Source: Nannocystis pusilla
GTDB taxonomy: Bacteria > Myxococcota_A > Polyangia > Nannocystales > Nannocystaceae
Assembly (NCBI RefSeq): GCF_020073745.1
Contig: NZ_JAIRAU010000047.1
Span: forward strand, 285,990-349,989
Direction: 5' to 3'
Length of the DNA stretch: 64,000 bases
Made by a program: the position numbers and the translations under genes. The stretch's first letter is position 1; each line of letters begins with the position of its first letter. Shown piece after piece: positions 9,786-59,503 of the stretch. Under the pieces are notes generated by a model. The model worked only from the letters and a program-made list of their open reading frames with translations, was not told the origin of the DNA and made no database searches.

Positions 9786-9787
<2 letters not shown>

Positions 9788-12127: not shown

Positions 12128-12163
12128 GACGACCATCCACCCCGCCATCATCGAGGTCGGCCG

Positions 12164-17944: not shown

Positions 17945-18290
17945 GGACATGCTCTCCAAAACATGTCCTCCAAAACATTATCGTAAGGACATGTCCTCGA
18001 CGGCCTCCTGCTCGCCCCTCCTTCGGCGCCCAGCGCTGCGCCGCCGGGCCCCCACTGCGCGGAGCGCCGCCTCGCTCGCCGCGCCGGGAAGGACTGGTCC
18101 TGCGCACCGACGCCGGCCGTTTGATGTCCACCATCCTCGTCATTCCCCGCCCGGCTCGAGCCACGCTCTCGCCGCTCGTGACGCCCCGCGACGACCTGTC
18201 CCGCCCGGACAGAGCGCCGCTCGCGTCGCTCTCGTGACCCCCGCGGCGCACCTGCTCCCCCGGGTTCGAGTCCCGCTCGCGTCGCCCGTC

Positions 18291-18806
18291 ATGACGCCTC
18301 GCGGCAAGACGCGCTACCCTCCGCCCGTGCCACACGACCCCCAGGGCTGGATCGACGCGCTTCACCTCGTCCCGCACCCCGAGGGCGGGCACTACCGCGA
18401 GACCTACAGGGCCGGGCTCGCCGTCGAGCGCGACGGCCGGCGGCGCAGCGCCTCGACCGCGATCTACTACCTCCTGCGCCACGGCGAGCGCTCGCGGCTG
18501 CACCGGATCCGCAGCGACGAGCTGTGGCACTTCCACGCCGGCGACGGGCTCCAGGTCCACGTGTTCGACGCGCGCGGCCACGCCGTCCTGCGGCTCGGCC
18601 TCGACCTCGCGGCCGGCGAGGCCCCGCAGCAGTGGGTGGCCGCCGGCGCGTGGTTCGGCGCCGAGGTCGAGCGGCCGGGCGGCTGGGCGCTCGTCGGCTG
18701 CACCGTCGCCCCGGGCTTCGAGTTCGCCGACCTCGAATTCGCCGACCGCGACGCGCTCCTCCGCGCCCACCCGGCCCACGCCGACGTCATCGCCCGCCTC
18801 GCCTGA
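18291..18806 (+). CDS. cupin domain protein (DUF985-like)
   Basis: 171 aa starting at ATG 18291 (MTPRGKTRYPP...). 'HPEGGHYRETY' and 'WHFHAGD' resemble the DUF985 cupin family. Confidence 0.55.
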   Translation: MTPRGKTRYPPPVPHDPQGWIDALHLVPHPEGGHYRETYRAGLAVERDGRRRSASTAIYYLLRHGERSRLHRIRSDELWHFHAGDGLQVHVFDARGHAVLRLGLDLAAGEAPQQWVAAGAWFGAEVERPGGWALVGCTVAPGFEFADLEFADRDALLRAHPAHADVIARLA

Positions 18807-18926
18807 AGATCGCGGTCACGCGCCTGCGGCCCTGAATATTCCCCGGGAACCTCGCCGGGGCGGCGCTGTCTGCCGCTCCCGAGCGACGCGCGTGCGGCCG
18901 GTGGCGGCCGACCTGTCCGTCGCGAC

Positions 18927-19487
18927 ATGTCCATTTCGCCAGCTGACTCATCGCTGCCATCGGAGGACCCCGCCGTGCCCACCCGCAAGCCGCCCGAGGA
19001 AGAGACCGTCCAAGCCGACCTCCTGCCCGTCATGAACATCATGTTCTTGCTGATCCCCGCCTTGCTGCTGGCGATGGAGTTCGCCAGCATGGCCCAGATC
19101 TCGGTCGCCGTCCCGCGCACCGTCAGCGACGTGACCGCGCGGCCGAAGGATCCCGGCCAGCCCGAGCTCGGCTTCAAGGTGGCGATCGGCCGCGACGGCT
19201 TCCGCACCCGCTCCGGCGGCGCCGACGCCGGCCCGGGCACGATCCCCCTGAGCGGCGGCGCCTACGACTACGCCGCCCTCGCCGCCGCCGCCCGCGACCT
19301 CAAGCAGCTGTTCCCCACCGAGTCGACCGTCACAATCACCGCCGAGGGCGACGTGCCGATGGACGTCCTCGTCCGCACCATCGACGTCCTCCGCGGCGAC
19401 AGCTGCAAGCTCGGCGGCTGGGCCCGCGGCGAGCAGCCCGGCGACGGCTGCCTGTTCTGGACGCCGGTGATCGAGAGCGTCGGCTGA
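18927..19487 (+). CDS. ExbD/TolR-like biopolymer transport protein (tentative)
   Basis: 186 aa. Single N-terminal TM 'LLPVMNIMFLLIPALLLAM', similar to the ExbD signature, followed by a periplasmic domain. The start ATG lies inside a GACATGTCC palindromic unit. Confidence 0.4.
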   Translation: MSISPADSSLPSEDPAVPTRKPPEEETVQADLLPVMNIMFLLIPALLLAMEFASMAQISVAVPRTVSDVTARPKDPGQPELGFKVAIGRDGFRTRSGGADAGPGTIPLSGGAYDYAALAAAARDLKQLFPTESTVTITAEGDVPMDVLVRTIDVLRGDSCKLGGWARGEQPGDGCLFWTPVIESVG

Positions 19488-19858: not shown

Positions 19859-20194
19859 TCAGTACTCCTCGACCCACTCCGCCACGGGCGTGCCCTCACC
19901 GGCGTGGCGCTCGAGGATGACCGGCAGCATCTCCTCGGTCACCCCCGGATAGAACCCGCGTCCGCTGACGTCGCGGGGCTCGACGTCCCCGTTCTCGCCG
20001 GGGGCCAGCGGCCGCACGAACACGTTGGGCCCCTCGCTGCAGCGGCCGAAGCAGTTGTAGGCGACCACGTGGCAGCGCGGCTTCAGCCCGGGGTCGGCCG
20101 CGATCCCCGCCTTGAGCAGCGTCACCAGGCGCTCGCTCTCATGGGTGATGCCGCAGCTCGGCCCGTCGCAGACGAGGATCTGAAACCTTCGCAT
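19859..20194 (-). CDS. thioredoxin-like [2Fe-2S] ferredoxin
   Basis: 111 aa. Four Cys in the arrangement 'CDGPSC...C..C' ('LVCDGPSCG', 'YNCFGRCSEGP'), typical of [2Fe-2S] ferredoxins of the NuoE/thioredoxin-like fold. Confidence 0.7.
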   Translation of the reverse strand: MRRFQILVCDGPSCGITHESERLVTLLKAGIAADPGLKPRCHVVAYNCFGRCSEGPNVFVRPLAPGENGDVEPRDVSGRGFYPGVTEEMLPVILERHAGEGTPVAEWVEEY

Positions 20195-20292
20195 GGCGCC
20201 CGGGCCTTGTAGCGAACAACGCCCAGGCCCCGCAAGTCGCCCGTCTGCCGGTTTTTTGGCGGTCCGCGGTCCGGCGAGTAGCGTCTCGCTCC

Positions 20293-25203: not shown

Positions 25204-26946
25204 TTGAGCGCCGACCGCATCCACGGCGACACCGCCAACCTGAAGAGCAGCCAGTCGCGCGCCCTCCAGCGCCTCGGCGAGCGCCGCGTCCCCGCCGACC
25301 GCGTCATCTCGGCCGCCCTCGCGCGCGACCTGCTCGACCTCTCGCACCAGCTCGGGCGTCAGCTCGGCCTCTTCATCGACCGCCGCGGCCAGGTCGAGCG
25401 CGTCATCCTCGGCGACGCGCACAGCCTCAGCCTGCCGGAGTTCGCCCGCGTCCGCGGCGCCCTCGGCCGCTTGCGCGGCGTCCGCCTGATCGTCACCCAC
25501 CTCGTGCCCGACCCGCTCACGCGCGAGGAGCTGGCCGACCTCGCCAAGCTGCGCCTCGACCTCGTCGCCGGCGTGCACCGCGGCCCCGCCGGCATCCAGC
25601 TCGACCTCGCCAGCCTCACCCCGGCCGCGCCCGGGGCCGCCGAGGTGTTCACGCTGCGGACCTGGCCGAGAGTACCTGTCTCGACGCTCAGCCGCGATCT
25701 GTCGACCCGACCCGACGACGAGACGCCCCCGCCAGCCGACGCGCCCGACCTGCCGATCGACTTCACCGGCTTCATCCGCGAGCTCGAGGCCAAGCTCGTC
25801 GCCGCGACCACCGACGCGCGGGCCGAGGCGCGCGGCACCAAGGCGACCGCGCTGGTGATCCACGGCGGCGGCCCCGAGGTCCCGGCGCGGATCAGCGAGC
25901 TGCGCGAGCTGTGCCGCACCGCCGGCATCCAGCTGATGGACCTCGTGACCCAGCGGCGCCCGCAGCCCGACCCGCGCACCTTCTTCGGCCAGGGCAAGCT
26001 GCGCGAGGTCATCGTCCGCGCGCTCGAGCAGGACTGCGAGCTCCTGATCTGCGACCCCGACCTCACGCCCTCGCAGGCGCACGCGATCGCCGACGAGACC
26101 GAGCTCAAGGTCATCGATCGCACCACGCTGATCCTCGACATCTTCGCCCAGCACGCCCGCAGCGCCGACGGCAAGCTGCAGGTCGAGCTGGCCCAGCTGC
26201 GCTACATGTTGCCGCGCATGGTCGGCAAGGGCACCGCGATGTCGCGGCTCGCCGGCGGGATCGGCGGGCGCGGCCCCGGCGAGACCAAGCTCGAGATCGA
26301 TCGCCGCCGCGCCAAGGAGCGGATAAGCGCCCTGACGCGCCGCCTCGCCGAGCTGCGCCAGCGTCGCGACCAGCGCCGCGCGCTGCGCCGCAGCACCAAC
26401 GTCCCGGTGGTCGCGATCGTCGGCTACACCAACGCCGGCAAGTCGAGCCTGCTCAACACCGTGACCCAGAGCGAGGTCCTGGCCGAGAACAAGCTGTTCG
26501 CCACCCTCGACCCGACCGTCCGCCGGATCCGCTTCCCCGAGGACCGCGAGGTCGTCCTGCTCGACACCGTCGGCTTCATCCGCGACCTCCCGCCGGCCCT
26601 GCTGCAGGCGTTCAGCGCCACCCTCGAGGAGGTCGCCGACGCCGACCTGCTGCTGCTCGTCGTCGACGCCAGCGACCCCGACCGCGACCAGCAGCGCGCC
26701 GCCGTCGAGGCGATCCTCGGCGACCTCGGCGCCGGCAAGGTCCCGCGCCTGCTCGTGTTCAACAAGTGCGACCTGCTCGCGCCGGAGGAGCTGGCCGCCC
26801 GCCGCGAGGACGCCGGCCCCGACACCTTCTTCATCAGCGCGATCGACCGCCGCAGCACCTTCCCGCTCATGCACGCCATCGAGACGCACCTGTGGGAGCG
26901 CGGAATGATCGAGCGCGCGGCCACGTTCACGGGTGACGAGCCCTGA
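25204..26946 (+). CDS. hflX: GTPase HflX
   Basis: 580 aa with a TTG start. HflX N-terminal domain. G1 'GYTNAGKSSL', G3 'DTVGF', G4 'NKCD'. Its stop overlaps the uppP start (ATGA overlap). Confidence 0.85.
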   Translation: MSADRIHGDTANLKSSQSRALQRLGERRVPADRVISAALARDLLDLSHQLGRQLGLFIDRRGQVERVILGDAHSLSLPEFARVRGALGRLRGVRLIVTHLVPDPLTREELADLAKLRLDLVAGVHRGPAGIQLDLASLTPAAPGAAEVFTLRTWPRVPVSTLSRDLSTRPDDETPPPADAPDLPIDFTGFIRELEAKLVAATTDARAEARGTKATALVIHGGGPEVPARISELRELCRTAGIQLMDLVTQRRPQPDPRTFFGQGKLREVIVRALEQDCELLICDPDLTPSQAHAIADETELKVIDRTTLILDIFAQHARSADGKLQVELAQLRYMLPRMVGKGTAMSRLAGGIGGRGPGETKLEIDRRRAKERISALTRRLAELRQRRDQRRALRRSTNVPVVAIVGYTNAGKSSLLNTVTQSEVLAENKLFATLDPTVRRIRFPEDREVVLLDTVGFIRDLPPALLQAFSATLEEVADADLLLLVVDASDPDRDQQRAAVEAILGDLGAGKVPRLLVFNKCDLLAPEELAARREDAGPDTFFISAIDRRSTFPLMHAIETHLWERGMIERAATFTGDEP

Positions 26947-27821
26947 TGTCCGCCCCCGAGCTCGACCTCGGCCTCGCCGCCCTCCTCGGCGCCCTCCAGG
27001 GCGTGGCCGAGTTCCTGCCGATCTCCTCGTCCGGCCACCTCGCCCTGGCCCAGCGCGTCGCCGGCCTCGACGCCGGCGCCGGCGGCCACTCGTTCAACAT
27101 CGTCGTCCACGCCGGCACCCTGCTGGCCGTCCTGTTCCACTACCGCGGCGACCTGCTCGCGCTGGCCCGCGCCGTCTTGCGTCCGGGACATGTCCCCCAG
27201 CACATGCCCGATGCGCCAGGCTCGGAAGGACATGTCCCCTCGGGCAGCTCACCGAGCGACGCGCGAGCGCTGCTGCTCGCGCTCGTCCTCGGCACCTTGC
27301 CGCTGGCCGCCGCCCTCGCCCCGCCGGTCGAGAACCTCGTCATCGCCGCCGAGCACCACCCCCGGGCCATCGGCGCCTGCTTCCTCGTCACCGCGGCGAT
27401 GCTCGGCCTGGCCGAGTGGCTGACCCGCCGGCGCCGGAGCCCGCAGGAGGTCCCGCGGCCGCTGCAGGCGCTGCTCATCGGCCTCGCGCAGCTCGTCGCC
27501 ATCCTGCCCGGCATCTCGCGCAGCGGCTCGACGATCGCCGCCGCCATGGGCCTCGGCCTCGGCCGCCTGCCGGCCGCGCGCTTCTCGTTCCTGCTGGCGA
27601 TCCCCGCCATCCTCGGCGCCGCGCTCAAGGAGGCGCTCGACCTGATGAAGGAGGGCCTGCCCGCCGTCGACCCGCTCGCCTTCGTCGTCGGCTTCTTCGT
27701 CAGCTTCGTCGTCGGCGTCGCCACCCTGCGCGTGCTGCTGGTCCTGCTGGTCCGCGTCGGCGTGGTGCCCTTCGTGCCCTACCTCGTCGTCCTCGGCCTC
27801 GCCGTCCTCGCCCTCGGCTAG
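26946..27821 (+). CDS. uppP: undecaprenyl-diphosphate phosphatase UppP/BacA
   Basis: 291 aa. Conserved 'EFLPISSSGH' and 'PGISRSGSTI' motifs and 8 TM segments. The loop at 27181-27245 is encoded by palindromic units. Confidence 0.85.
   Translation: MSAPELDLGLAALLGALQGVAEFLPISSSGHLALAQRVAGLDAGAGGHSFNIVVHAGTLLAVLFHYRGDLLALARAVLRPGHVPQHMPDAPGSEGHVPSGSSPSDARALLLALVLGTLPLAAALAPPVENLVIAAEHHPRAIGACFLVTAAMLGLAEWLTRRRRSPQEVPRPLQALLIGLAQLVAILPGISRSGSTIAAAMGLGLGRLPAARFSFLLAIPAILGAALKEALDLMKEGLPAVDPLAFVVGFFVSFVVGVATLRVLLVLLVRVGVVPFVPYLVVLGLAVLALG
27185..27240. repeat. three palindromic units (GGGACATGTCCC, CACATGCCCG, GGACATGTCCC; core spacing 14 and 28 bp) inside the uppP coding sequence
   Basis: Direct reading. 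The units encode loop peptide 'RPGHVPQHMPDAPGSEGHVPSG'. Confidence 0.85.
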
Positions 27822-28196
27822 GAGCCTGTCCGGGAAATCGCGGGGCCGGAGGCGCGGGGCCGTGGAGTTCTGGGTGACGGCGGGCACGGAGCGGCGGAGC
27901 GGGTCCCTCGCTTCGGCGGGGCCCTCCCAGGCAACGTGCTCGGCGCCCTCGGGCTTCGATATCGATCTGTCGTTGAGGACAGGTTCGTACGTGCCTCACG
28001 GACGATGGCGCCTGCGCGCGGTTGCCTGCGGCCCCTCCCGCCGGCGTCCCACTCCGCCGCTCCGTGCCCGCCTGCGAAGAGCGTCGCCGGCCCCGCTTGT
28101 CGCCGCGCGGGAGCCTCACGGAGCGGCGGCGAGTGCGGCGCGTCCGGCTTCGTTTCTACCTGTCCTAAAGAACAGGACCGATCCACCATAACCTTG

Positions 28197-28236
28197 TAGA
28201 CATGCCCATCACGACATGCCCGTACGAGCATGCCCT
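28197..28236. repeat. three direct GACATGCCC units at 14-bp spacing, preceded by GTCCT-N7-AGGAC inverted repeat (28160-28178)
   Basis: 'tagacatgcccatcacgacatgcccgtacgagcatgccct', in the convergent uppP/queA intergenic region. Confidence 0.8.
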
Positions 28237-30732: not shown

Positions 30733-32445
30733 GTGGCAGTCTTGTCCCCCGTGGCGACCCCCCTGTCGGCCCTCTCGCTGATCGCCTGGCTCGCGCTCGC
30801 CGGCGCGGCGCCTGGCGGTCCGCGCATGTCCCTCGGCGCAGGTCCTGACGGCCAGGTGCGTTCGGGCATGTCCGAAAGTCCAGGCCCTCTGCTGGCCCTC
30901 GCGCCGGCCCGCGGCGGCAAGGCCAAGCCCCCCGCGCCCGAGCCCGCGCCGGCCCCCGCGCCGACCTACGGCCCCGAGCAGGCCCGCGCCGACATCGAGC
31001 TCGTGCTGACCGGCCGCGGCCAAGACTACCTGCAGGCCCGCGCGCGGCTCGAGCAGCACCCGACCGTCGCCGCGCCGCTGGTCACCGCGCGCATGACCGC
31101 CACGCCCGCGCCCACCGCGGTCGAGCAGCGCCGCCTGCTCGCTCTGCTCGGCGGCATCGCCCGCCCCGAAGACGTCCCGCTGTTCGCCGACGCCATGCGC
31201 CGCGACGTCGCCGCCGCGGTCAAGCAGTCGCAGGAGCAGGGCATCGAGCTGCCGGCCGCCGAACCGTGGCGCGAGATCTTGCGCGCCCAGGGCCCGGCGG
31301 CCGCGCCCGCGCTCACCGGGCTCGTGGCCGAGAAGTCGTTCAGCGAGGAGCTGCGCGGCCTCTTGCTCGCCGACCTCGTCGCCGTCACGCCGGCCGACAA
31401 GCTGCCCGAGCTCGTCGCGCTGGTCGGCCTCGGCACGCCGAGCCTGCGCGCCGCGCTGCGCCAGGCGATCGCCCGGCGCGCGCACGCGTCCGCCGGCGAG
31501 CGGGCCCAGCTCGTGCAGGTCGTCGACGCCGCGATCGAGGCCGGCGAACCGGCGCGCCTGCCCGGCCTCGTGCTGCTGCGCGCCGCGATCGGCGGCAGCG
31601 ACGACGCTCCGTTCACCCGGCGCGCGGCCGCCCTCGCCGAGGACGCCGCCGCCGAGTTCGCCGCCCGCGTCGCCGCGCTCCGCGTGCTCGTCGCCCGTCG
31701 TAGCGACCCCGCGGCGCAGACGGTGCTCGCGCGCCTCGCCGAGCAGCACCTGCCCGCCGACAAGCGCGTCGAGCTGCGCAGCGAGATCCTCGGCAGCCTC
31801 GCCCTCGCCGGGCTCGAGCCCGGCCCTGCCGCCGCCGTCGTCGACCGCCTGCAGCTCACCGGCGCCGACGCGCCGCGGGTCGCCGTCGCGGCCTTCTCCG
31901 TCGCCACCCTGCCGGCCGACGGCGCCTGGCTCGACGTCAGCCAGCGCCACGCCTGGCCCGAGGTCCGCGCCGCCGCGCTCGCCCGCGTCGACGGCCCGTG
32001 CTCCGCGGGCGTCCTCCGCCGGCTGCGCGACGGCACCAGCACCTCCGGCAACACCTTCGAGGCCGACGCCGCCGTCGCGCGCGAGGTCATCGCCGCGCTC
32101 GGCCGCTGCGGCGGTCCCGACGCCTTCGCCGCGCTGCAGGCCGTGGTCGTCAGCGCCGAGCAAAACGTCGACCGGCGGGCCGAGGCCGCGCGCCAGCTCG
32201 TCGACCGCCACGGCAGCGCCGGCGCCGACGTCGTCGCCGCCGTGCTGCGCAGCACCGACGACCTCGCGGTCGCGCTCCGCCTCGTGCGCGCCCTGCAGCG
32301 CTACGCCGACGACGAGGCGGCCCCCTCCGACGACGTGCGCACGGCCCTGTGCGCCGCGAGCAAGCGCCAGGAGCTGGCCACGATCGCCCAGCGGGCCGTC
32401 CGCGGCCTGTTCCCCGACCTCGACGACCCCTGCGCGGGCAACTGA
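30733..32445 (+). CDS. hypothetical protein, probable HEAT/ARM-like helical repeat protein
   Basis: 570 aa, Ala/Leu/Arg-rich with repeated helical hairpins. The N-terminal 50 aa are encoded by a 5-unit 14-bp phased palindromic array, so the true start may be the internal ATG at about 30866. Confidence 0.4.
   Translation: MAVLSPVATPLSALSLIAWLALAGAAPGGPRMSLGAGPDGQVRSGMSESPGPLLALAPARGGKAKPPAPEPAPAPAPTYGPEQARADIELVLTGRGQDYLQARARLEQHPTVAAPLVTARMTATPAPTAVEQRRLLALLGGIARPEDVPLFADAMRRDVAAAVKQSQEQGIELPAAEPWREILRAQGPAAAPALTGLVAEKSFSEELRGLLLADLVAVTPADKLPELVALVGLGTPSLRAALRQAIARRAHASAGERAQLVQVVDAAIEAGEPARLPGLVLLRAAIGGSDDAPFTRRAAALAEDAAAEFAARVAALRVLVARRSDPAAQTVLARLAEQHLPADKRVELRSEILGSLALAGLEPGPAAAVVDRLQLTGADAPRVAVAAFSVATLPADGAWLDVSQRHAWPEVRAAALARVDGPCSAGVLRRLRDGTSTSGNTFEADAAVAREVIAALGRCGGPDAFAALQAVVVSAEQNVDRRAEAARQLVDRHGSAGADVVAAVLRSTDDLAVALRLVRALQRYADDEAAPSDDVRTALCAASKRQELATIAQRAVRGLFPDLDDPCAGN
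30821..30885. repeat. five-unit 14-bp phased array (CATGTCC / CAGGTCC / CAGGTGC / CATGTCC / CAGGCCC) at the 5' end of the HEAT-like gene
   Basis: Cores at 30824, 30838, 30852, 30866 and 30881. Confidence 0.8.
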
Positions 32446-35210: not shown

Positions 35211-35240
35211 AAGGGCCATGACCGCGAGGTCATGGCCCTT
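35211..35240. terminator. perfect 13-bp-stem hairpin AAGGGCCATGACC-gcga-GGTCATGGCCCTT between convergent genes (candidate bidirectional terminator)
   Basis: Direct reading. It lies between the lipoprotein stop (35178) and the HU-like gene stop (35299). It is followed by imperfect direct repeats 'gggacag...caggagcgcgagccgg' at 35255-35318. Confidence 0.5.
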
Positions 35241-36156: not shown

Positions 36157-37788
36157 TCAACTTCGCAGCACGCGCAGCGCTCGCTCGAGGTCCGACATCA
36201 CCGTGTCGTCGGCCGGATTTCGCTGCCCCGGAGGGAGTTCACCCTCGCGTCGGATCACGTACGACGGATGATACGTGACGTGAAGTGGGATCTGCAGGCC
36301 TGCACCCGGGTCGTCGTAGGTCCAACGACGGTTGCGCATCTGTGCCAACTTCAGATCCTGATCGGTGCCGGTCAGCAACATCCCCGCGTGCCGGCCGAGC
36401 GCCACGATCACCGCGGGACGGATCGCCCGGATCTGGGCGCGCAGGAACGGCGAGCACTTCTCGATCTCGTCGGCGGCCGGTTCGCGGTTGCCGGGCGGCC
36501 GGCACTTCAGCACGTTGGCGATGTAGACCTGCTCGCGCTTCATGCCCAGGCGCTCGATCCACTGCGTCAGCCGCCGGCCGGCAGCGCCGACGAACGGCTC
36601 GCCGCGCCGATCTTCGTCCGCGCCGGGCGCCTCGCCGATGAACATCACCCGCGCGTCGGGGTCGCCGACGCCGAATACAATGTTCGTGCGGGTCTTCGAG
36701 AGCTTGCAGCGGGTGCAGTCGCCGACGTTACGGGCCCGCAAGTACTCGAGCTTCTGCGCCGGCGTCCACGCCTGAGCCTGCGCGCGTAGCGAGGCATCGC
36801 CGGCCGGGCGCGGCGCGCCCTCGGCCGCACGCGGCGGTGCCCCCTGATCCGCCAGCGGCAGGCTGACCGTCCGGGGCCGCGGCGACGGCTCCGCGGGCTG
36901 CTGGTGGACCGTGCGAGCGCGCGGCGGCTCCGCGGGCGCGCGCGAACGCGGTGCATCTTGCGGCGGCGGCTCCCAGTCTGCAGGGCCCCGCTGCGTGCGC
37001 CCTCGCGTCGTCTCCTGCGGCGACGACTCGCGGTCTGCATGGCCCCGCTGCGCGCGCCCTCGCGTCGTCTCCTGCGACGACGCCTCCCGGTCTGCAGGGC
37101 CCGGCTGCGCGCGCCCTCGCGTCGGCTCGTGCGGCGACGGCTCCCGGTGTGCAGGGCCGGGCTGCGCGCGCCCGCGTGTCGTCTCCTGCTGCGACGACTC
37201 CCAGTCTCCGGAGCCCGACTGCGCGCGCCCGCGTGTCGTCTCCTGCGGCGGCCACGGCTCCCAGTCTCCGGGGTCCGGCTGCGCGCGCTCTCGCGTCGTC
37301 TCCTGCGGCGACGGCTCCCAGTCATCCGGGCCCGGCTGCGCTCGACCGCGTGGCGTCTCTTGCGGCAGCGACGGCTCCCAGTCCTCGGGGCCCGGCTGCG
37401 CGCGCCCTCGCGTCGTCTCCTGCGACGGCTCCCAGTCCGCCGGGCCCGGCTGCGCGCGCCCTCGCTTCGTCTCCTGCGGCGGCGGCCCCGAGGCCGCGCC
37501 CGGCTGTGTGCGCGCTCGCGGCTCGGGATCGCGGGCGGATCTGGCCTGGTCTTCGGGCCATGTCGGCGCGCGCGCCCCCGCGGCGGTGCGCTCGGTCGCC
37601 TGTCCGGACGGCCAGGTGCTGTCCGGCGCCGGCGATCGCTCCTCGGGCGCGGAGATCGGCGCGCTCGCGCGACGCGGAGAGGCCGCGGCGGACACGTACG
37701 CCAGACCGCGGAACTCCCGGAGGTGACGCAGGTGGGCGGCGAACTGAACCGCCAGCCGCCGGGTCGCGTCGCGTCGATCGCCTTCCAC
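36157..37788 (-). CDS. family-4 uracil-DNA glycosylase with N-terminal tandem-repeat extension
   Basis: The C-terminal 200 aa carry UDG-4 motifs: '[20 protein letters not shown]', '[13 protein letters not shown]', 'HPSYVIR', and a 4Fe-4S Cys cluster 'CTRCKL'. The N-terminal 330 aa form an in-frame Pro/Arg-rich repeat tract. The start codon is uncertain. Confidence 0.65.
36960..37500. repeat. about 9 tandem copies of a roughly 57-60 bp repeat (19-20 aa unit '[19 protein letters not shown]') inside the UDG N-terminal extension
   Basis: Direct reading: 'ggctcccagtc[tc]...gggcccggctgcgcgcgccctcgcgtcgtctcctgcg' recurs head-to-tail. The peptide repeat is visible in the ORF translation. Confidence 0.8.
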
Positions 37789-37802: not shown

Positions 37803-39108
37803 TCAGTTCGTCGCCGCCAGCGCGTCGAGCAGCCAGGCCGCCAGCGCCGCCTTGGCGATCGGCGGGCCCGACGCGCGCACGGCGATCGCGTCGCCGTCGC
37901 GCGCCAGCAACAGGCCGGCGTTGGTCGCCGACGCGAAGCCGACCCCGGGCGCGCCGACGCGGTTGACGAAGATCGCGTCGGCGCCCTTGGCCCGCAGCTT
38001 GGCCGAGCCGAGCCGGATCAGCTCCTGCTGCAACCTGTCCTCGGGGCCATCCTCGACCGTCTGCGCGGCGAACCCGAGGAAGCGCGAGCGCGGGGCGCCC
38101 GGCGCCGCGCCGCGGCCGAAGCGGACCGTGAGCGCGGCGAGGATGTCGGGCGCGGCCCGCCAGGCGAGCGTCGGCAGCGTCGCCAGCAGCTCGGCCTTCT
38201 CGAGCTTGCGCGCGGCGCCGCCGTCGATCTCGAGGTCTTGCACCGCCGCGACCATGGCCACCCAGTCACATGGCCCTTGAGACAGCTCGTTCTCCAGCGC
38301 CGCCTGCATCTCGGCCGCGGTCTCGACGTCGACGCGGCGCACCCCCGCCGGCGTGGCCAGCTCGACCGGTCCGGCCACCAGCGTCACCGCGGCGCCGGCG
38401 CGCTGGGCCGCCTCGGCCAGCGCGAAGCCCATCGCCCCGGTCGACGCGTTGGTGACGAAGCGGACCGGATCGATGTACGTGCGCGTCGGCCCGGCCGACA
38501 CCAGCACGCGCTTGCCCGCCCACGGCCCGCGGCCGACGCCGAGCCGCGCCAGCGCGGCGGCGACGATCAGCGGCGGGTCGATCATGCGGCCCTCGCCGAT
38601 CCACCCGCACGCCAGCTGCCCGCGATCGGGCCCGACGAACTCGGCCCCGCGGGCGCGCAGTGTCGCCAGGTTGTCCTGCGTGGCCGGGTGGCGCCACATG
38701 TTCGTGTTCATCGCCGGCGCCCACAGCACCGGCGCGCGCGTGGCCAGCAGCACCGTCGCGGCGAGGTCGTTCGCCAGGCCGTGGGTCGCGCGCGCCAGCA
38801 GGTCGGCGGTGGCCGGCGCGACGACCACCAGGTCGGGCCAGTCGGCGAGCTCGATGTGGCCGACGTGGCCCTCCTCCTCCGGGTCGAGCAGGCGCGTGCG
38901 CACCGGCCGGGTCGACACCGTCGCCAGCGACAGCGCGCTGACGAACGCCTCCGCCGCCGGCGTCATCACCACCTGGACCTCGCAACCGGCGGCGACGAAC
39001 GCCCGCACCAATTCCGGCGCCTTGTAGGCCGCGATCCCGCCGCTGACGATCAGCAGGACGCGACGGCCCCGCGGACGTGTCCCATGGGACATGTCCGTGG
39101 CACCAGCC

Positions 39109-39116
<8 letters not shown>
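37803..39116 (-). CDS. coaBC: bifunctional phosphopantothenoylcysteine decarboxylase/phosphopantothenate-cysteine ligase CoaBC
   Basis: 437 aa. Flavoprotein N-terminus '[20 protein letters not shown]' and 'PAMNTNMW'. C-terminal CoaB ligase domain. An alternative start at the ATG inside a palindromic unit at about 39092 would remove the overlap with ribBA. Confidence 0.85.
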
Positions 39117-40270
<1,154 letters not shown>

Positions 40271-40273
40271 TCT

Positions 40274-41029
40274 TTAGCTGTTCTTGGAGACAGGTGCTTC
40301 GGGACAGGGCGCTTCGGACCTGTCCCCGGAGTCAGCATTCACGTCGGCCGCGGCGGCGTAGCCGGCCGCGGCGTCGAGGTAGCCGGCGCGGACCAGGGCC
40401 TCGCGCGTGACCGCGGGCGCGGCGGCCCGGCCGGCCTCGGCCCCGGCGCCGAGCAGGCGGGCGACGTAGCGCGCCAGCAGGTCGACCTCGAGGTTGAGCG
40501 CGTCGCCCACCTTCAGGTCGGCCAGGGTCGTGGCCGCGAGCGTGTGCGGGATCAGGCCCACGGCGAACCCACGCGGGTCGACCGCGTTGACCGTGAGGCT
40601 GACGCCGTCGACGCACACGCTGCCCTTGACCGCGATGTAGCGGGCCAGCTCGCCCGGGACGTCGAACCACATCTCGACCGCGTCGCCGCGGGCGACCCGG
40701 CTGCGCACGCGCGCCAGGCCGTCGACATGGCCGGACACGAGGTGGCCGCCGAGCGCGTCGCCGAGCCGTAGCGCCGGCTCGAGGTTGACGCGGCTGCCGG
40801 GCCGCAGCTCGCCGAGGGTGGTGACCGCGAGCGTCTCGAACGCGGCTTCGACGGTGAAGTCGCCGGCGGTCGAGGCGACCACGGTGAGACACACGCCGGA
40901 GATCGCCACGCTGGCGCCGAGGCTGCGATCGCCCTCCGACAGCGCGTAGCGGATCACGAAGGTGCGTCGCTGCGCGCCAGGGATCACGCGCTCGACCGTG
41001 CCGACGCCGCGCACGAGGCCGGTGAACAT
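40274..41029 (-). CDS. ribE: riboflavin synthase alpha subunit with atypical C-terminal tail
   Basis: 251 aa. 'MFTGLVRGVGTV' start and two lumazine-binding repeats. The last 45 aa ('...ADSGDRSEAPCPEAPVSKNS') are encoded by palindromic repeat units. Confidence 0.8.
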   Translation of the reverse strand: MFTGLVRGVGTVERVIPGAQRRTFVIRYALSEGDRSLGASVAISGVCLTVVASTAGDFTVEAAFETLAVTTLGELRPGSRVNLEPALRLGDALGGHLVSGHVDGLARVRSRVARGDAVEMWFDVPGELARYIAVKGSVCVDGVSLTVNAVDPRGFAVGLIPHTLAATTLADLKVGDALNLEVDLLARYVARLLGAGAEAGRAAAPAVTREALVRAGYLDAAAGYAAAADVNADSGDRSEAPCPEAPVSKNS

Positions 41030-41089
41030 GCGGGGGTTATGGCACAGATCACCGGCCGGTGCGACGGCCCGCAGAGCCCGCCGGATGCG

Positions 41090-42325
41090 TCAGATCTCGC
41101 GTCCTTCGGGATCGTCGGCGGCGTCCGCCGGCGGGCCGAGGACGGTCAGGCCGTCGACCCCGACGTCGGTGCGCAGCAGCGGACGAAGCCGCGTGGCGTC
41201 GGCGACCGCCGCGACCTTGAGGCCGGCGGCGGCGGGACGTCCGTCACCCAGCACGATCGGCGCATGGAACCAATAGAACCGCTGCCACGCGGCGGCGGCG
41301 ACGAAGCTGGCGATCATCCGCCCGCCGCCCTCGACCAACAGCGAACGCAGCGGCAGCTTGCCGAGCGCCTGCAACGCGCCGGCGACGTCGACCCGGCCCT
41401 CGGCGTCGCCGTCGAGCTCGATGCGCCGCAGGCCGAGCTCCTCGACCGCCCGCTGCGCCGCGGCGGGAGCGCGGCTGGTGTGCAGCACCACGGTGCCCGG
41501 CCGCAGCAACGTCGGCCGGCGCACCGCCCCGGCCACGCGCAGCCCGCTGTCGAAGATCACCGGCAGCGGGTCGACGCCGGTCACCATGCGCACCGACAGC
41601 GCGGGATCGTCGCGCAGCACCGTGTCGGCGCCCACGGCGATCGCGTGGTGACGGGCCCGCAACCAGTGTCCGAGGCGCCGCGCCGGCGCGCCGGTGATCC
41701 ACTTGCTGTCCCCCGAGCCAGCCGCGATCTGGCCGTCGAGCGACGACGCGATCTTCAGCGTGACGAACGGCAGTCGCGTCCTCTCGTGGTGCAGGTAGTG
41801 CTCGTGCGCAGACGCGCACGCGCCCGCGAGCACGCCCTCACGCACGCGGATGCCGGCCGCGCGCAGCAGTTCGATCCCGCGACCGCCGGCGTGCACCGCC
41901 GGATCGAGGCTGCCGATCACGACCTCGGCCACCCCGGCGGCGATCAGCGACCCGGTGCACGGCGGCGTGCGGCCGAAGTGCGAGCACGGCTCGAGCGTGA
42001 CGTAGACCGTCGCCCCGCGCGCGGCCTCGCCGGCCTGCTGCAGCGCGGCGACCTCGGCGTGCGGGCCTCCCGTGACCGCGCTGCGCCCGGCGCCGACGAC
42101 CTTCTCGCCCTGCACGACGATCGCGCCCACGCACGGGTTCGGGTAGGTCGCGCCGGTGCCCGAGCGAGCCAGCGCCACGGCCGCGCCCATCAGTCGGACG
42201 TCGCGTGCCGCCCGCGACTCGTCCGCCGCCGGCGCGCTCGCCAGCGCCGCCGCGATCGCAGCCGGGCCGTCGTCCGCGGTCCCGCTCGCGCCGCCGAGCA
42301 GGTCAGCGAGCTCCGGGTAAATCAA
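41090..42325 (-). CDS. ribD: bifunctional diaminohydroxyphosphoribosylaminopyrimidine deaminase/5-amino-6-(5-phosphoribosylamino)uracil reductase RibD
   Basis: 411 aa. Deaminase zinc motif 'HAEVAAL...TLEPCSHFGRTPPC' plus a C-terminal reductase domain. Confidence 0.8.
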   Translation of the reverse strand: MIYPELADLLGGASGTADDGPAAIAAALASAPAADESRAARDVRLMGAAVALARSGTGATYPNPCVGAIVVQGEKVVGAGRSAVTGGPHAEVAALQQAGEAARGATVYVTLEPCSHFGRTPPCTGSLIAAGVAEVVIGSLDPAVHAGGRGIELLRAAGIRVREGVLAGACASAHEHYLHHERTRLPFVTLKIASSLDGQIAAGSGDSKWITGAPARRLGHWLRARHHAIAVGADTVLRDDPALSVRMVTGVDPLPVIFDSGLRVAGAVRRPTLLRPGTVVLHTSRAPAAAQRAVEELGLRRIELDGDAEGRVDVAGALQALGKLPLRSLLVEGGGRMIASFVAAAAWQRFYWFHAPIVLGDGRPAAAGLKVAAVADATRLRPLLRTDVGVDGLTVLGPPADAADDPEGREI

Positions 42326-42939
42326 TTCACCTCGCTCTCCGGCGACGCTGCCGGCGCGGACCTGTCCCCAGAGTCAGCCTCGTCCTCGCCCTCGGCGAAG
42401 GCCGGCAGCCGGGTCGGCGCGCTGAGCTGGATCTGCCCGCGGGCGTCGATCTCGAACAGCGTGCGCTGGCCCTCGGGGCTGGTGTGCGCGGCCTTCTCCA
42501 TCTCGTTCAACAGGTGCACGAACTCGTCGACCGCCTGGTACTCGCCGTGGATGGCGACGTAGCGCACGTAGGCGACGGCGTCGAGCGGGCGCAGCAACCG
42601 GAGGATCCGGTCGGCGATCTCCTCGGCGCGGATCTCCTTCTCGCCGCGCGTCGCGGCCCACAGCTCGACCACGCCGAGCAGCGCCTCGATCTGCTCGTCA
42701 TCGACGGGGCGCTTGCGGCAGACCGCCTGCAGCGAGGCGCGGATCTTGTTGCGATCGAACAGCTGCTTGCCTCCGCCGCGCCCCAGCACGATCGGCGGCG
42801 TGGTCTCGATGCGCTCGTAGGTGGTGAAGCGGTGGTTGCAGTCGAGGCACGCACGTCGCCGCCGGATCGCACCGCCGTCCCGACTCTCCCTCGAGTCGAG
42901 GACCTTGATGCTCCCGCTGCGGCAGACCGGGCAGAGCAA
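42322..42939 (-). CDS. nrdR: transcriptional repressor NrdR with extended C-terminal tail
   Basis: 205 aa. Zinc ribbon 'MLCPVCRSGSIKVLDSR...CLDCNHRF' and an ATP-cone. The final 40 aa ('...EDEADSGDRSAPAASPESEVN') include the same 22-bp element found in the ribE tail. Confidence 0.8.
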   Translation of the reverse strand: MLCPVCRSGSIKVLDSRESRDGGAIRRRRACLDCNHRFTTYERIETTPPIVLGRGGGKQLFDRNKIRASLQAVCRKRPVDDEQIEALLGVVELWAATRGEKEIRAEEIADRILRLLRPLDAVAYVRYVAIHGEYQAVDEFVHLLNEMEKAAHTSPEGQRTLFEIDARGQIQLSAPTRLPAFAEGEDEADSGDRSAPAASPESEVN

Positions 42940-42940
42940 C

Positions 42941-43381
42941 CTACCCCCCGGGCTCCAGCTTCTCGACTCGCCGGGCGTGGCGCCCCCCGGCGAAGCGGGC
43001 GTCGAGGAAGGTCCTGAGCAGGACCTTCGCCAGCTCGACGCCGACGACCCGCGCGCCCAGACAGAGCACGTTGGCGTCGTTGTGTTCGCGGGCCATCGCC
43101 GCGCTGAACGGATCCATCACCACGGCGGCGCGGATGCCCGCCTGCTTGTTGGCGGCCATGGCCATCCCCTGACCTGTCCCACAGACCAGGAGGCCGAGCG
43201 AGCCCGGCTCGGCGCGCACGCGCCGGGCGACCTCGACCGCCACGTCGGGGTAGTCGACCGACTCGCTGGCCGCGGCCGGCCCGGACTCGCTGGCGACCTC
43301 GTGGCCGAACGCGGCCACGGCGGCCGCGAGCTCGCGCCGGAGATCGATCGCCGCGTGGTCGCTGCCGAGGTGCACGCGCAT
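42941..43381 (-). CDS. rpiB: ribose-5-phosphate isomerase B
   Basis: 146 aa. 'LLVCGTGQGMAMAANK' RpiB/LacAB signature. Confidence 0.8.
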   Translation of the reverse strand: MRVHLGSDHAAIDLRRELAAAVAAFGHEVASESGPAAASESVDYPDVAVEVARRVRAEPGSLGLLVCGTGQGMAMAANKQAGIRAAVVMDPFSAAMAREHNDANVLCLGARVVGVELAKVLLRTFLDARFAGGRHARRVEKLEPGG

Positions 43382-43384
43382 GGT

Positions 43385-44623
43385 CTAGCCCGCCCGCTTG
43401 AACACGAGGCACGCGTTGGTGCCGCCGAAGCCGAAGCTGTTGGAGAGGGCGACGTCGACCGCGACGCGGCGCGCCTCGTGCGGCACGTAGTCGAGGTCGC
43501 AGTCGGGGTCCGGCTCGTCGAGGTTGATGGTGGGCGGCAGCACGTTGTGGTGCAGCGCGAGGGCGCAGATCGCCGCCTCGAGCCCGCCCGTGGCCCCGAG
43601 CAGGTGGCCGTGCATCGATTTGGTCGACGACACCGCCAGCTTGCGCGCGTGCTCGCCGAACACCGCCTTGATCGCGCCGGTCTCGGTCGCGTCGGCGCTG
43701 GTCGAGGTGCCGTGCGCGTTGATGTAGCCGACCGTCTCGGGGGCGAGCCCCGCGTCGCGCAGCGCGAGCCGCATGCACCGCTGCGCGCCCTCGCCGTCGG
43801 GCGACGGCGCGGTGATATGATGCGCATCGGAAGTGGCCGCGTAGCCGACGATCTCGGCGTAGATCCGGGCTCCGCGGGCCTTCGCGCGCTCCCACTCCTC
43901 GAGGATCACGAGGCCGCAGCCCTCGCTGAGGACGAAGCCGTCGCGGCTGACGGTGAACGGCCGCGACGCCTTGGTCGGCTCGTCGTTGCGGGTCGACAGC
44001 GCGCGCATCGACGCGAAGCCGCCGACGCACAGCGGCGACACCGTGGCCTCGGTGCCGCCGGCGATCATCACGTCGGCGCCGCCGCGGGCGATCAGGTGGA
44101 ACGCCTCGCCGATGCTGTGGGCGCCGGTCGAGCAGGCCGACACGTGGCTCATGTTCGGCCCGCGGTAGTTGTGGCGGATCGAGATCTGCCCGGGCGCGAG
44201 GTTGACGATGATCGCCGGCACGAAGTACGGGCTGATGCCGAGGCGCGGGCCCTTCTCGCGCAGCGAGTCGTGCGTGGCCTCGAGGACCGGCAGACCGCCG
44301 AGGCCGGCGCCGACGTAGACGCCGAAGCGCTCGGGGTCGTCGGGCGCACCGAGCTGCGCGTCCTCGACGGCCATCGCCGCGGCCGCGATCGCGTACTGGA
44401 TGAAGAGGTCCATCTGTCGGACCTCTTTCTTGGCGATCCAGCGGGTCGGATCGAAGTTTCGGACCTCACCCGCGATCCGCGTCGACAAGATGCTGGCGTC
44501 GAACCGCGTGATCGGCCCGATCCCCGACTGCCCCGCGCACAAGCTCCGCCAGTTTTCGTCGTTGCCGACGCCCAGCGGGCTGATGAGCCCCACTCCCGTG
44601 ATCGCGACCCTGCGCCCCGTCAC
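43385..44623 (-). CDS. fabF: 3-oxoacyl-[ACP] synthase II
   Basis: 412 aa. KAS active-site Cys region '[11 protein letters not shown]'. His-His region '[11 protein letters not shown]' and 'GHLLGATG'. Confidence 0.9.
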
Positions 44624-53405: not shown

Positions 53406-55142
<1,737 letters not shown>

Positions 55143-55340
55143 GGTCCTCGGGTCTAAGATTCGCGGGCCGCCCACGCACGCATGGGCGAACCAGCGGAGT
55201 CGACGTAGCGTTTCGGATCGCGAGCGATCGATCAAGCGTGCAAGTCCGCGACGCGCGTCGTCGTGCCAACGAATTTCACCCGCGAAAACACCGACGCGGG
55301 CCGCCCCGGCCGGAGCGACCCGCGCGTCATGCCACATCAC

Positions 55341-57086
55341 TCACATCGGCTGGATGCCGCAATCGTCGACCTCGTTCGGAATGCAACCCTCGCAATCCCA
55401 CCGGAAGTTGTCGAGCAGCGCGACCGTGGTCAGGTATTGATCGGACATGTCGGCCAAGAAGAAGCCGATCGTGATCTCGGCACCCGGCTGCACACCGCCC
55501 TTGGCGGTGAACCAGTCGGTGCAGGCGTGCTGCTCGAAGCCCGTGCCCTGCAGCTGCGGCTCGGCGAAGGTGTAGCCGGGGCCGTCGTAGTACGGGTCGA
55601 GCGCCGTGATCGTCAGCGGCAGGCCGCTGGCCGGATTGTTCGGGTCGGGGATGAAGGTGACGTTGCCGCTGTACGGGTCGACCGGGGGCATCGCGTTCGG
55701 GTTGTCGGGCGTCGGATCGACCTGATAGGCGATCAGCAGGTCGTTGTACGAAGAACCGACCCACGTCGGCCACTCCGCCGAGCAGAACACGAAGTCGAAG
55801 GTGTAGCCGAACGTGCCCGCCGGCACCTTCGTATTGAAGGTGAAGTAGATGCGGTCGTTGGCGTTGCCGTTGGTCATCGCCCACTGGGCCTGGAGCGTGT
55901 CCGAGCAGTCGCGGTCGCCGTTCGGCACGCCGTTGTCGCAGTTCTTGAAGGGCGTGCCGCCGGCGCCGTTGTTGCTGCCGTTCTGGTTGTTGAACGGCGC
56001 CGGCAGGACGCCGCCGTCGGGGTTGAAGTTGTCGTCGTGCGTCTGCGAATTCGCCGGCTCGACGACGACGCCCTGGCCGTTCGGCGGGGTGATCGTGCCC
56101 GTCGACAGCATCAGGAAGGCCGCGCCCTCGCGCGGGCTGTAGAGCAGCTGCGGCGGCGTATTCGCGTCCATGTCGTGGTCGTAGGTGTACGTGCCGAAGC
56201 CCTTCGCCACCTGCCACGAATTGTCGACCGCCTGCGAGAACTGGAAGTTGCTCGTCATGATCGAGTCGGCCGGGGTGCTGTTGCAGATGCCGATCGCCTT
56301 GAGCGCGTTGTTCTTGTCGGCCTTGTTGCTGATCACGTCGGGCGCGTCGTCGCACACGACATAGTTGGCCGGGGCCTGACAGCTGGCCGGGAAGTAGGTG
56401 GTGCAATTGTTGAGGCAGAAGTCGCCGGGGCCGCCGTCGACCGTGTTGCCGTCGTCGCACTCCTCGCCGGCCTCCTTGATGCCGTTGCCGCAATCGGCCG
56501 GCGAGAACGTGCAGTCGGGCTCGCAGCCGTCGCCGGGGACCACGTTGCCGTCGTCACACTGCTCGGGGCGCTCGACCGTGCCGTTGCCGCAGTCCTGCAG
56601 CGGCGTGGCCGTCTGGCAGTCGGCGCTGCACTCGTCGCCGTCCTCGGTGTTGCCGTCGTCACACGCCTCGCCGGCCTCGACGTTGTTGTTGCCGCAAACG
56701 GCCGTGATCGTGCACGTCGGCTCACAGCCGTCGCCCGCGACGTCGTTGCCGTCGTCGCACTCCTCGCTGCCCTCCTGAACGCCGTTCCCGCAGTCCGGCA
56801 CGCCCTCCGTCACGCCCTCCGTCTCGGCCGCCGTGGCCGTCCCCTCCGTCGTGCCCTGCGTGGCGCTGTCGCTCACGCCCGTGGTCGGCGTGCCCGTCGT
56901 CGGCTGCGAGGTCTCGGTCGCCGAGTCGCCGCCCGCGGTCGCGTCGACCGTGGCTTGTGAGGCGGTGTCGCCCTCGGTCTGACCGTCGGACGCGCTCGAA
57001 AGTTTGCCGCCGTCGTCGCCGCACGCGGCGAGCGCCGAGGCGAGAAAGCCGGCCGTAAGGATTCGAAAAGTCGGTCGAGTCATCAT
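55341..57086 (-). CDS. myxobacterial Cys-rich repeat lipoprotein, paralog 2
   Basis: About 581 aa from ATG 57086 (MMTRPTFRILTAGFLASALAACG). Same architecture as paralog 1. Confidence 0.7.
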   Translation of the reverse strand: MMTRPTFRILTAGFLASALAACGDDGGKLSSASDGQTEGDTASQATVDATAGGDSATETSQPTTGTPTTGVSDSATQGTTEGTATAAETEGVTEGVPDCGNGVQEGSEECDDGNDVAGDGCEPTCTITAVCGNNNVEAGEACDDGNTEDGDECSADCQTATPLQDCGNGTVERPEQCDDGNVVPGDGCEPDCTFSPADCGNGIKEAGEECDDGNTVDGGPGDFCLNNCTTYFPASCQAPANYVVCDDAPDVISNKADKNNALKAIGICNSTPADSIMTSNFQFSQAVDNSWQVAKGFGTYTYDHDMDANTPPQLLYSPREGAAFLMLSTGTITPPNGQGVVVEPANSQTHDDNFNPDGGVLPAPFNNQNGSNNGAGGTPFKNCDNGVPNGDRDCSDTLQAQWAMTNGNANDRIYFTFNTKVPAGTFGYTFDFVFCSAEWPTWVGSSYNDLLIAYQVDPTPDNPNAMPPVDPYSGNVTFIPDPNNPASGLPLTITALDPYYDGPGYTFAEPQLQGTGFEQHACTDWFTAKGGVQPGAEITIGFFLADMSDQYLTTVALLDNFRWDCEGCIPNEVDDCGIQPM

Positions 57087-57453
57087 GGTCGTGTCCTGTA
57101 TGCGAAGCATGTGGGCCGTCCTCGAATGCATGGCGGTCCCGCCTTGATTCCTCATGATTCATGAGTGATCAAGGCCGGTGCCTCGCGCAGCGGTCCGCAG
57201 GCCTCATTGGTGAATCTGCAGCCTCGACCGCGCGAGACCGTCGTTCCGGCGCAGGAAGCACGCGATTCGTCGTCGCTGCCGATGGTGATCCACCGCAAGC
57301 TGTCGAGCTCGCTGGAAGACCACGGGTAGACGTCACATTTGTTCGACTCGCGCGATTCGACGCAACATCACACCATCGATTCCGCCCGCTCGAGACGCGA
57401 CGAGGCGCGCACGTCGCCGTGCGCGCCGCGTCACTCGTACCTCGAGCCGTCGA

Positions 57454-59187
<1,734 letters not shown>

Positions 59188-59503
59188 GGCGAAGGTATCC
59201 TTGAACGTGGTGGCGCGCCCTTCCAGGACGGGCACGCCGCTGCCGCAGCGGCGCGCGCGCGGAATGACGTGAATCAACCGGGCCACGATTTCGGACTTCG
59301 CCGCAGGATCAAGCGTCCACCGACCTGGTGCCTTCAAACCATGCCTGACGACGATCGTGGCAAATCTGCGCCCGCAGAGGCGCTGCCGCCGCGCGCCGCT
59401 CGTTCGCTACTCCAGCGACCGCGAACCTTCGATCCGGACAACAGAGGCGCAGACTCCGCCGCAGCTGCAGAGACTGCCATGAATCAACTTCATCGCCTGT
59501 CCT

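Follow-up and report, generated by a model that had tools for sequence, protein, structure and literature searches.

Parallel C-terminal tails of RibE and NrdR in Nannocystis and a dispersed family of phased palindromic repeats

Why do RibE (riboflavin synthase) and NrdR, encoded two genes apart in Nannocystis pusilla, carry the same peptide, ADSGDRS, close to their C-termini, and why is the DNA that encodes it nearly the same at both places? The question is raised by a stretch of 64,000 nucleotides (nt) of this genome (GCF_020073745.1, contig NZ_JAIRAU010000047.1, positions 285,990 to 349,989 of the forward strand), called here the window and numbered from its first letter, in which a 22-base-pair (bp) element stands just before the stop codons of ribE and nrdR. 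An earlier note on this DNA had taken the element as direct evidence of a mobile or recombining module that has fused to gene 3' ends. The analysis points to another explanation, which is given a probability of about 0.65: the 22-mer would be the edge of a repeat family long resident at two gene junctions, the tails would be formed by read-through of these repeats, and the close likeness of the two copies would go back to an ancestral gene conversion.

The genes and elements in question are listed below; lengths of proteins are in amino acids (aa), and "unit" denotes the 10-bp palindrome GGACATGTCC or a variant of it.

42941-43381, minus strand: rpiB.
42322-42939, minus strand: nrdR, 205 aa, of which the family profile covers residues up to 146 and aa 147-205 (42325-42501) form the tail; the stop codon overlaps the ribD start.
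42357-42378, minus strand: 22-mer copy 2, sense GCTGACTCTGGGGACAGGTCCG, encoding ADSGDRS of NrdR; its only full unit is at 42358-42367, and the ribD start follows 33-54 nt downstream.
41090-42325, minus strand: ribD, between the two 22-mer copies, its start overlapping the nrdR stop.
40274-41029, minus strand: ribE, riboflavin synthase, 251 aa; aa 193-197 mark the end of the family profile, and the tail is aa 194-251 (about 40277-40450).
40315-40336, minus strand: 22-mer copy 1, sense GCTGACTCCGGGGACAGGTCCG, encoding ADSGDRS of RibE; it is made of the degenerate half-unit GCTGACTC, a spacer and the full unit 1, GGACAGGTCC (40316-40325).
40274-40336, minus strand: phased array of the ribE-ribBA junction, sense GGACAGGTCC gaag CGCCCTGTCC cgaa GCACCTGTCT ccaa GAACAGCTAA.
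39109-40269, minus strand: ribBA; the true start codon is the ATG at 40269-40267 (MSETTNYEHV), with 4 nt between it and the ribE stop.

The element CGGACCTGTCCCCRGAGTCAGC occurs exactly twice in the window, and no third site is found in the 64 kb with up to three mismatches (expected number 0.00 in 100 dinucleotide shuffles). The two copies agree at 21 of 22 positions, so that the near-identity claimed in the earlier note is confirmed, with true coordinates 1-2 nt away from those it gave. Also as claimed, both are read on the minus strand as GCT GAC TCY GGG GAC AGG TCC (ADSGDRS), and the stop codon follows after 13 further codons in RibE and 11 in NrdR.

The 22-mer is one and a half units, a degenerate half-unit and a full unit, at the upstream (5') edge of an array; at ribE, GCTGACTC is a degenerate right half-unit placed 14 nt before unit 1. 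The unit consists of a 10-bp palindrome with the consensus GGACATGTCC and 4 variable bases, and units follow one another in a strict 14-bp register in runs of one to six. Common variants are GGACAGGTCC, CGCCATGTCC, and GACATGCCC. Perfect copies of GGACATGTCC number 9 in the window against 0.06 expected, which is an approximately 150-fold over-representation; with up to one mismatch there are 27 (2.0 expected), and with up to two mismatches 81 (26.9 expected). Spacings between units are 14 bp in 15 cases, 28 bp in six, and 42 bp in four, the shuffle means being 0.01 or less at each distance. About 20 arrays are present in the 64 kb, and arrays were found in every other Nannocystis locus examined (the counts cover the window and about 200 kb of related loci). 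The GGACATGTCC arrays are a lineage-specific dispersed repeat family of Nannocystis and close relatives, and membership of the 22-mer in a family of dispersed palindromic units, as first suggested, is borne out by the counts and the phasing in the window. A search of the literature on repeats, palindromes, REPIN, and RAYT in Nannocystis and Myxococcales, and on the decamer itself, returned no description of it, and the family is apparently undescribed. Viral contigs scanned for unit arrays held isolated matches only, none of them relevant.

Units are 3.7 times denser in non-coding DNA, and arrays are densest at gene junctions. All six frames of the consensus unit are free of stop codons, as read from the palindromic sequence itself, and arrays can therefore lie in coding DNA; some stand in frame inside genes, and 33 of the 51 units with up to one mismatch in four Nannocystis loci are inside called coding sequences. 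The unit is almost symmetric, its 3' half being only slightly better conserved, and this near-symmetry would be more in keeping with a symmetric factor that recognises double-stranded DNA, or with a symmetric process that generates the units, than with an RNA signal. An excess of arrays on the plus strand is apparent in the window and not separable from the window's gene-strand bias. Adjacent units could form 10-bp stems with 4-nt loops; such pairing is perfect in 2 of 34 pairs and averages about 7 of 10 Watson-Crick positions, with 18 G.U pairs on the sense strand versus 22 on the antisense strand. Selection on sense-strand RNA hairpins of adjacent units is unsupported by these figures.

Within the family the ribE/nrdR pair stands at the top of the pairwise scores of all unit-anchored 23-mers in the window (21/23). 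Six further pairs reach 20/23, all but one at unrelated loci, and the match between the two genes is thus a family resemblance rather than an outlier. The 19-nt core CTGACTCYGGGGACAGGTC is confined, in the window and the fetched loci, to the nrdR and ribE junctions and their orthologues. A metagenome scan with this 19-mer gave eight matches, of which six are chance matches in low-GC contigs and two are relevant, one at a ribE/ribBA orthologue (L029) and the other downstream of kdsC (L027). The latter occupies positions 1-21 of a 74%-GC metagenomic contig, where it is intergenic, 3' of kdsC and cut by the contig end; it adds a third, unrelated context. The NrdR box and other known operators were rejected as identities for the 22-mer, which, compared with the NrdR-box consensus, does not resemble them.

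Both proteins are longer than their families. With tail limits set by the ends of the NCBIfam profiles (residues 193-197 for riboflavin synthase, residue 146 for NrdR), the extensions come to about 54-58 aa in RibE and 59 aa in NrdR, which is more than the 45-50 aa given in the earlier note. The ribE and nrdR open reading frames (ORFs) do run through the units, which encode the last residues of the tails, as proposed there, but the unit-encoded part is limited to the last 20 aa of RibE (40277-40336) and to 7 aa of NrdR (42358-42378). The tails are therefore not derived as a whole from palindromic units; most of each is ordinary lineage-specific coding sequence. The non-unit RibE tail includes VTREALVRAGYL, found in many RibE proteins of Nannocystaceae and Myxococcales, which have in common LLARYVARLL-linker-(G)VTRExLxRAGYL, and the non-unit NrdR tail includes EMEKA..PEGQRTLFEIDARGQI, found in many myxobacterial NrdR proteins, which share EMEKAxxVxPEGQRTLFE.

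The four units of the ribE array are in register at 40316-40325, 40302-40311, 40288-40297, and 40274-40283, in the same order of variants as in the array at 20690-20739. They are translated as ADSGDRSEAPCPEAPVSKNS up to a TAA stop; as 14 = 3x4+2, the frame shifts by +2 with each unit, giving DRS, PCP, and PVS in turn. Predicted tryptic peptides of the tails are SEAPCPEAPVSK (RibE) and SAPAASPESEVN (NrdR). The codons of ADSGDRS include GCT (9% of Ala), GGG (15% of Gly), AGG (2.2% of Arg), and TCC (14% of Ser), and other rare codons in the unit-encoded residues are GAA, TGT, GCA, and CCT. Non-synonymous substitutions alter the unit-encoded part of the RibE tail between species, and the unit-encoded residues tolerate non-conservative replacements, the unit cores remaining constant. 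From codons and substitutions alike, the DNA appears to dictate the tail peptide, not the reverse.

The age of the two copies follows from orthologues. A search with NrdR led to six other Nannocystis species (N. radixulma at 98% identity, the rest at 84-87%), and both copies are at orthologous positions in all six, with NrdR ending in ...EDEADSGDRS... and RibE in ...(A/P/T)DSGDRSEAPCPEAPVS... in each. At the DNA level CTGACTCYGGGGACAGGTC is aligned at both junctions in the seven genomes; L004 and L005 each have one copy altered by point changes. The nrdR stop and the ribD start overlap in every species, the start codon being GTG or TTG and the overlap reading TTGA in the window and GTGA in the others. 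Between the ribE stop and the ribBA ATG lie 4-9 nt in Nannocystis; in the metagenomic relatives L031, L032, and L040-L042 the two overlap as ATGA. The recurrence of the same tails and junction positions in six other species rules out a recent insertion.

Two local peculiarities were seen in the same region. In N. pusilla Na p29 (L004, 7845-8644), and only in this genome, ribE is split over two frames (ORFs of 178 and 248 aa), by a frameshift or an assembly error. At the 5' end of ribBA (about 40190-40262) the first 70-plus nt from the start are identical, synonymous sites included, in all Nannocystis sequences that extend over this stretch (five to seven); the only change is in codon 2 (GAGC/GAGT), and this conservation is far above the genus average of about 68% codon invariance.

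Beyond the genus the junctions are still occupied. Among seven metagenomic relatives, whose NrdR proteins are 76-84% (L043, L041, L040, L042), 74% (L031), 68% (L032), and 63% (L033) identical to that of the window, arrays or remnants are present at both junctions in all except L033. Two forms of the unit occur here in alternation, GACAGGTCC (DRS or DRF in translation) and GACATGTCC (DMS, DML, or DMY), which indicates that the palindrome is conserved and not the peptide. NrdR homologues as distant as about 65% identity still have tail motifs of the DR[SF]/DMS type, and RibE homologues down to about 70% have the pattern DRS/DMS - xCP - PVS; the tails are conserved across the genus and degrade outside it, so that the refutation named in the earlier note, conservation of the tails in distant orthologues, applies in part.

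The two copies resemble each other in one clade only. Within a genome the nrdR copy matches the ribE copy at 17-20 of 22 positions in the seven Nannocystis genomes versus 10-14 of 22 in five outgroup lineages. Compared with the window, the nrdR copy keeps 15-18 of 22 positions in four of the five outgroups (for example, GCTGACTCTTCAGACAGGTCC in L042), the ribE copy only 12-15; at ribE the edge of the array is different, being AGATGTCCAGGGGGACAGGTCT in L040 and AGATGTTTCAAGTGACATGTCC in L041. The nrdR version appears from this comparison to be the ancestral one, and as the nrdR copy is the stable one, conversion would have run from nrdR to ribE. The simplest reading would be a single short-tract gene conversion (about 20 nt) from nrdR to ribE, 2 kb apart, on the stem branch of the genus. 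Ongoing gene conversion was rejected: neither the polymorphic TCY codon nor the flanks co-vary between the two copies from species to species. The suggestion that the units recombine is borne out to this extent, the two copies appearing to have recombined and being homogenised only within Nannocystis.

The favoured explanation of the twin tails combines these elements. Arrays would have been present at the nrdR-ribD and ribE-ribBA junctions since before the genus diverged, and the upstream ORFs would run on to the first in-frame stop past the arrays, where it overlaps the ribD start or stands 4-9 nt before the ribBA start. Since this first in-frame stop is beyond the arrays, the units would be translated as the last residues of the tails, with the frame moving by +2 per unit. 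A gene conversion in the ancestor of the genus would have overwritten the edge of the ribE array with the nrdR version. The tails would then be read-through products of long-resident junction arrays, and the identity of the peptides would be incidental. The family itself may persist by local duplication or conversion, by a sequence-specific constraint on the palindromic cores, or by both; either selection through a binding factor or molecular drive may keep it.

Several points weigh against this explanation. The conversion is drawn from only 12 genomes or contigs, the phylogeny of which is not resolved. The same homogenisation would result from convergent selection on a functional site common to both copies, and the identical frame of the two copies, together with a synonymous Ser wobble as the only recurrent change, would also be expected under selection on the peptide. 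Conservation throughout the genus is by itself not strong evidence of constraint, as 68-69% of the codons that are invariant in amino acid are also invariant in codon across these species.

Of the rival explanations, the one that survives best, and is still unlikely, makes the 19-mer a cis-regulatory site of the nrdR-rib operon, bound by a protein or small RNA or processed by an RNase 30-70 nt upstream of the ribD and ribBA starts, the two copies being kept alike by selection. Its appeal is that both copies stand just upstream of the start of the next cistron, that almost all of the 14 copies in the seven genomes have the core unchanged, that homogenisation is confined to one clade, and that unit cores are better conserved than spacers. 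At two orthologous arrays, 59 of 74 core columns are invariant versus 16 of 36 spacer columns, and the cores keep 39 of 54 when the units used as alignment anchors are left out. Moreover, an Rfam scan of the whole window found no FMN riboswitch and no other family, which leaves the regulation of the rib genes unexplained. However, the 19-mer is made of generic family units that are found at many unrelated junctions and inside genes, and the metagenomic copy 3' of kdsC has nothing to do with rib genes. Scans of 38900-43500 for sigma-70 promoters and intrinsic terminators found none at either copy. Folding gives no better support: at the ribE junction a stem between units 1 and 3 is conserved in eight sequences, but with one-sided (G.U) changes only, no compensatory pairs and a z-score of -0.95; at the nrdR copy, which lacks a partner unit, no RNA structure is conserved (z-score -0.18).

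It is distinctly improbable that ADSGDRS is itself the object of selection, as a peptide motif (for example, a degron or docking motif) common to RibE and NrdR, with the DNA identity secondary. The shared frame, the retention of the motif in seven of seven species with mostly synonymous variation (TCC/TCT), and a D-R-[SF] core that reaches the more distant NrdR homologues mentioned above are what such selection would leave, but non-conservative replacements do occur (A to P or T, S to P, G to R), and the rare codons, above all AGG, fit a DNA template better than an optimised peptide. In outgroups the unit is read as DMS, DML, DMY, or QVS, so that the DNA palindrome persists and not the peptide, and units elsewhere give unrelated peptides in the other two frames (GHVP, TCP). 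A recently mobile MITE- or REPIN-like element, inserted independently at the 3' ends of ribE and nrdR, a reading in the direction of the earlier note, is hardly credible despite the dispersal of the family and the variation of array length between species at some loci, because the copies are orthologous in the seven Nannocystis genomes and have decayed versions in outgroups (arrays in relatives at 68-84% NrdR identity), neither a target-site duplication nor an empty site was seen, and no array was gained or lost across a 12.6-kb orthologous region of the seven genomes.

Read-through of old junction arrays would account for the identical tails of RibE and NrdR without a new function for either protein. 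The 22-mer is largely explained in this way, the interpretation in the earlier note is supported in part, and the repeat family is the more interesting object. Other arrays of the window are as follows.

9786-9865, plus strand: six-unit phased array at an intergenic junction.
12075-12136, plus strand: array of 4-5 units of the GACATGCCC type.
17945-17996: array, one of the arrays of 2-6 units.
20690-20739, plus strand: GGACAGGTCC ctcg CGCCATGTCC catc CGGCATGTCC tcc GAGACAGCC, in the linker of a Clp-like AAA+ gene.
22659-22696, plus strand: three units, GGACATGTCC cttg GGGCACGTCC cttg CGACATGTCC, in the ClpB_D2-small domain of the Clp-like AAA+ gene (20149-22821, plus strand).
27186-27250, plus strand: in-frame array in the UppP loop, GHVPQHMPDAPGSEGHVPSGS, of a length that varies between species; uppP is 26946-27821, plus strand.
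28156-28235, plus strand: six-unit array between convergent genes.
30822-30887, plus strand: five-unit intergenic array with conserved cores and variable spacers (four species).
39073-39096, no strand assigned: two units, GGACGTGTCC catg GGACATGTCC, at the ribBA-coaBC junction, kept in seven of seven Nannocystis genomes.

At orthologous intergenic arrays the number of units differs between species. The loop of UppP, with the peptide pattern GHVP...HMP...GHVP, is the clearest case of change in length: with some 70 nt of conserved codons on its flanks counted in, the loop region has 147 nt in the window, 171 in N. exedens, 267 in N. punicea, 279 in N. pusilla, and 354 in strain ILAH1 (L034-L037, around 10193-10546). 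It holds duplicated modules of about 51 nt (TDPAGHVPADS...), such as gaccgacccggccGGACATGTCCctgcGGACAGC, and the insert is absent from the 275-aa proteins of Enhygromyxa and Pseudenhygromyxa. To this extent the earlier note is borne out: the family is dynamic at this locus, with a span of 147-354 nt among five Nannocystis genomes. In the ClpB_D2-small domain the array, retained in five species, encodes DMSLGARPLRHVL with six rare codons ending in A or T, in a gene with a GC content at third codon positions (GC3) of 0.94; a conserved protein motif seems here to bear a non-coding constraint as well.

Further observations concern units and repeats at other genes. The probable start of coaBC is an ATG within the GGACATGTCC unit at 39087-39096, and it would be sequestered in a two-unit stem with 39073-39082. 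Downstream of the HU gene, at 35214-35237, a perfect hairpin, GGCCATGACC gcga GGTCATGGCC, shows matched changes in its two arms against the family consensus; a second hairpin and additional units come after it in four other species (L034-L037, around 17977-19341), with a T-run in L035 and L036. This hairpin is likely to be a true terminator built from family-like units. A gene of the uracil-DNA-glycosylase (UDG) family (36157-37788, minus strand) contains nine tandem 57-nt repeats at 36879-37486, which encode a 19-aa repeat in the N-terminal half of the protein; the called orthologues range from 217 to 533 aa among Nannocystis genomes. Low-complexity linkers of the type ...RTWPEDQ/RTWPEGQ... 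are present at 20892-21075 and 37500-37700, in the Clp-like and UDG-family proteins, and seem to come from a second unit variant, CCTGGCC/GGCCAGG, for example, gcacctggcccgaaggccagcc. These linkers suggest that repeat arrays may be a general source of disordered linkers in this genome. Finally, three paralogous genes in tandem, each of roughly 1.9-2.1 kb, occupy 53406-59406 on the minus strand; inside them are repeats of about 100 nt (repeat-finder families D2-D5).

In Nannocystis, whose genomes are large (12-13 Mb), gene ends, linkers, and loops are shaped by the family, and over-long ORFs, misplaced start codons, and similar annotation artefacts probably arise from it. Short-tract gene conversion between dispersed repeats, if the ribE edge is read correctly, would be a further property of it. 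If the palindromic cores are under selection, as their conservation relative to spacers and the rare codons suggest, a sequence-specific factor is to be found. A tentative extension, against which the odds stand, is that the phased GGACATGTCC arrays might be a genome-wide cis-signal specific to Nannocystaceae and read by a dimeric DNA-binding protein, which the near-symmetry of the unit would suggest, by analogy with tandem met-boxes. If this were true, selection on the signal would override codon usage in a conserved domain of a Clp ATPase, the arrays would double as a generator of variable loops and tails, and the 19-mer of the rib operon would be one specialised pair of such sites.

Compared with REP/REPIN, Rickettsia palindromic elements (RPE), MIRU, and HIP1, the family departs from at least one defining feature of each. 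The REP, BIME, and REPIN sequences of Enterobacteria and Pseudomonas are imperfect hairpins of 20-40 nt, which alternate in orientation and are extragenic. The Nannocystis repeats are similarly short, abundant, palindromic, and lineage-specific, are vertically inherited and long-lived, occur singly or in clusters at gene junctions in or between operons, and attain the high dispersed copy number of REP/REPIN. Unlike these, they have a perfect 10-bp palindrome as consensus and a strict 14-bp direct register, and they are not restricted to extragenic DNA, since two thirds of the good units (33/51) are in called genes, and the copies in ribE, nrdR, uppP, and the Clp-like gene are translated. A conserved head like the GTAG of REP was not seen in the units, and no transposase gene (compare RAYT, Y1) was noticed in the loci examined, of which the window had no systematic domain scan.

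RPE are single insertions of 100-150 bp in frame within ORFs, where repeats of the ERIC and YPAL types are also found. As in RPE, palindromic repeats in frame add peptide to loops or termini without destroying the protein, and the insert is absent from related orthologues, as seen for UppP. In contrast to RPE, the Nannocystis module is 14 bp long, arrayed and not a multiple of three, so that successive units are read in different frames, and through the choice of codons it overlies a conserved motif of a catalytic domain.

The MIRU of mycobacteria are non-palindromic repeats of 46-100 bp that form separate small ORFs and vary in copy number between strains. They share with the Nannocystis arrays a tandem arrangement at cistron junctions of a high-GC bacterium, frames that abut or overlap the flanking stops and starts, and a variable copy number. 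The period of 14 bp and the palindromic core set the Nannocystis arrays apart, as does the extension of the upstream gene in place of a separate small ORF. HIP1 of cyanobacteria is an 8-bp palindrome that occurs neither in phased tandem arrays nor especially at gene junctions; a connection with a methyltransferase has been proposed for it. Like HIP1, the Nannocystis unit is a short perfect palindrome, about 100-fold or more over-represented in coding and non-coding DNA and held against codon preference; unlike HIP1, it is organised in phased arrays, in which spacings of 14, 28, and 42 bp dominate.

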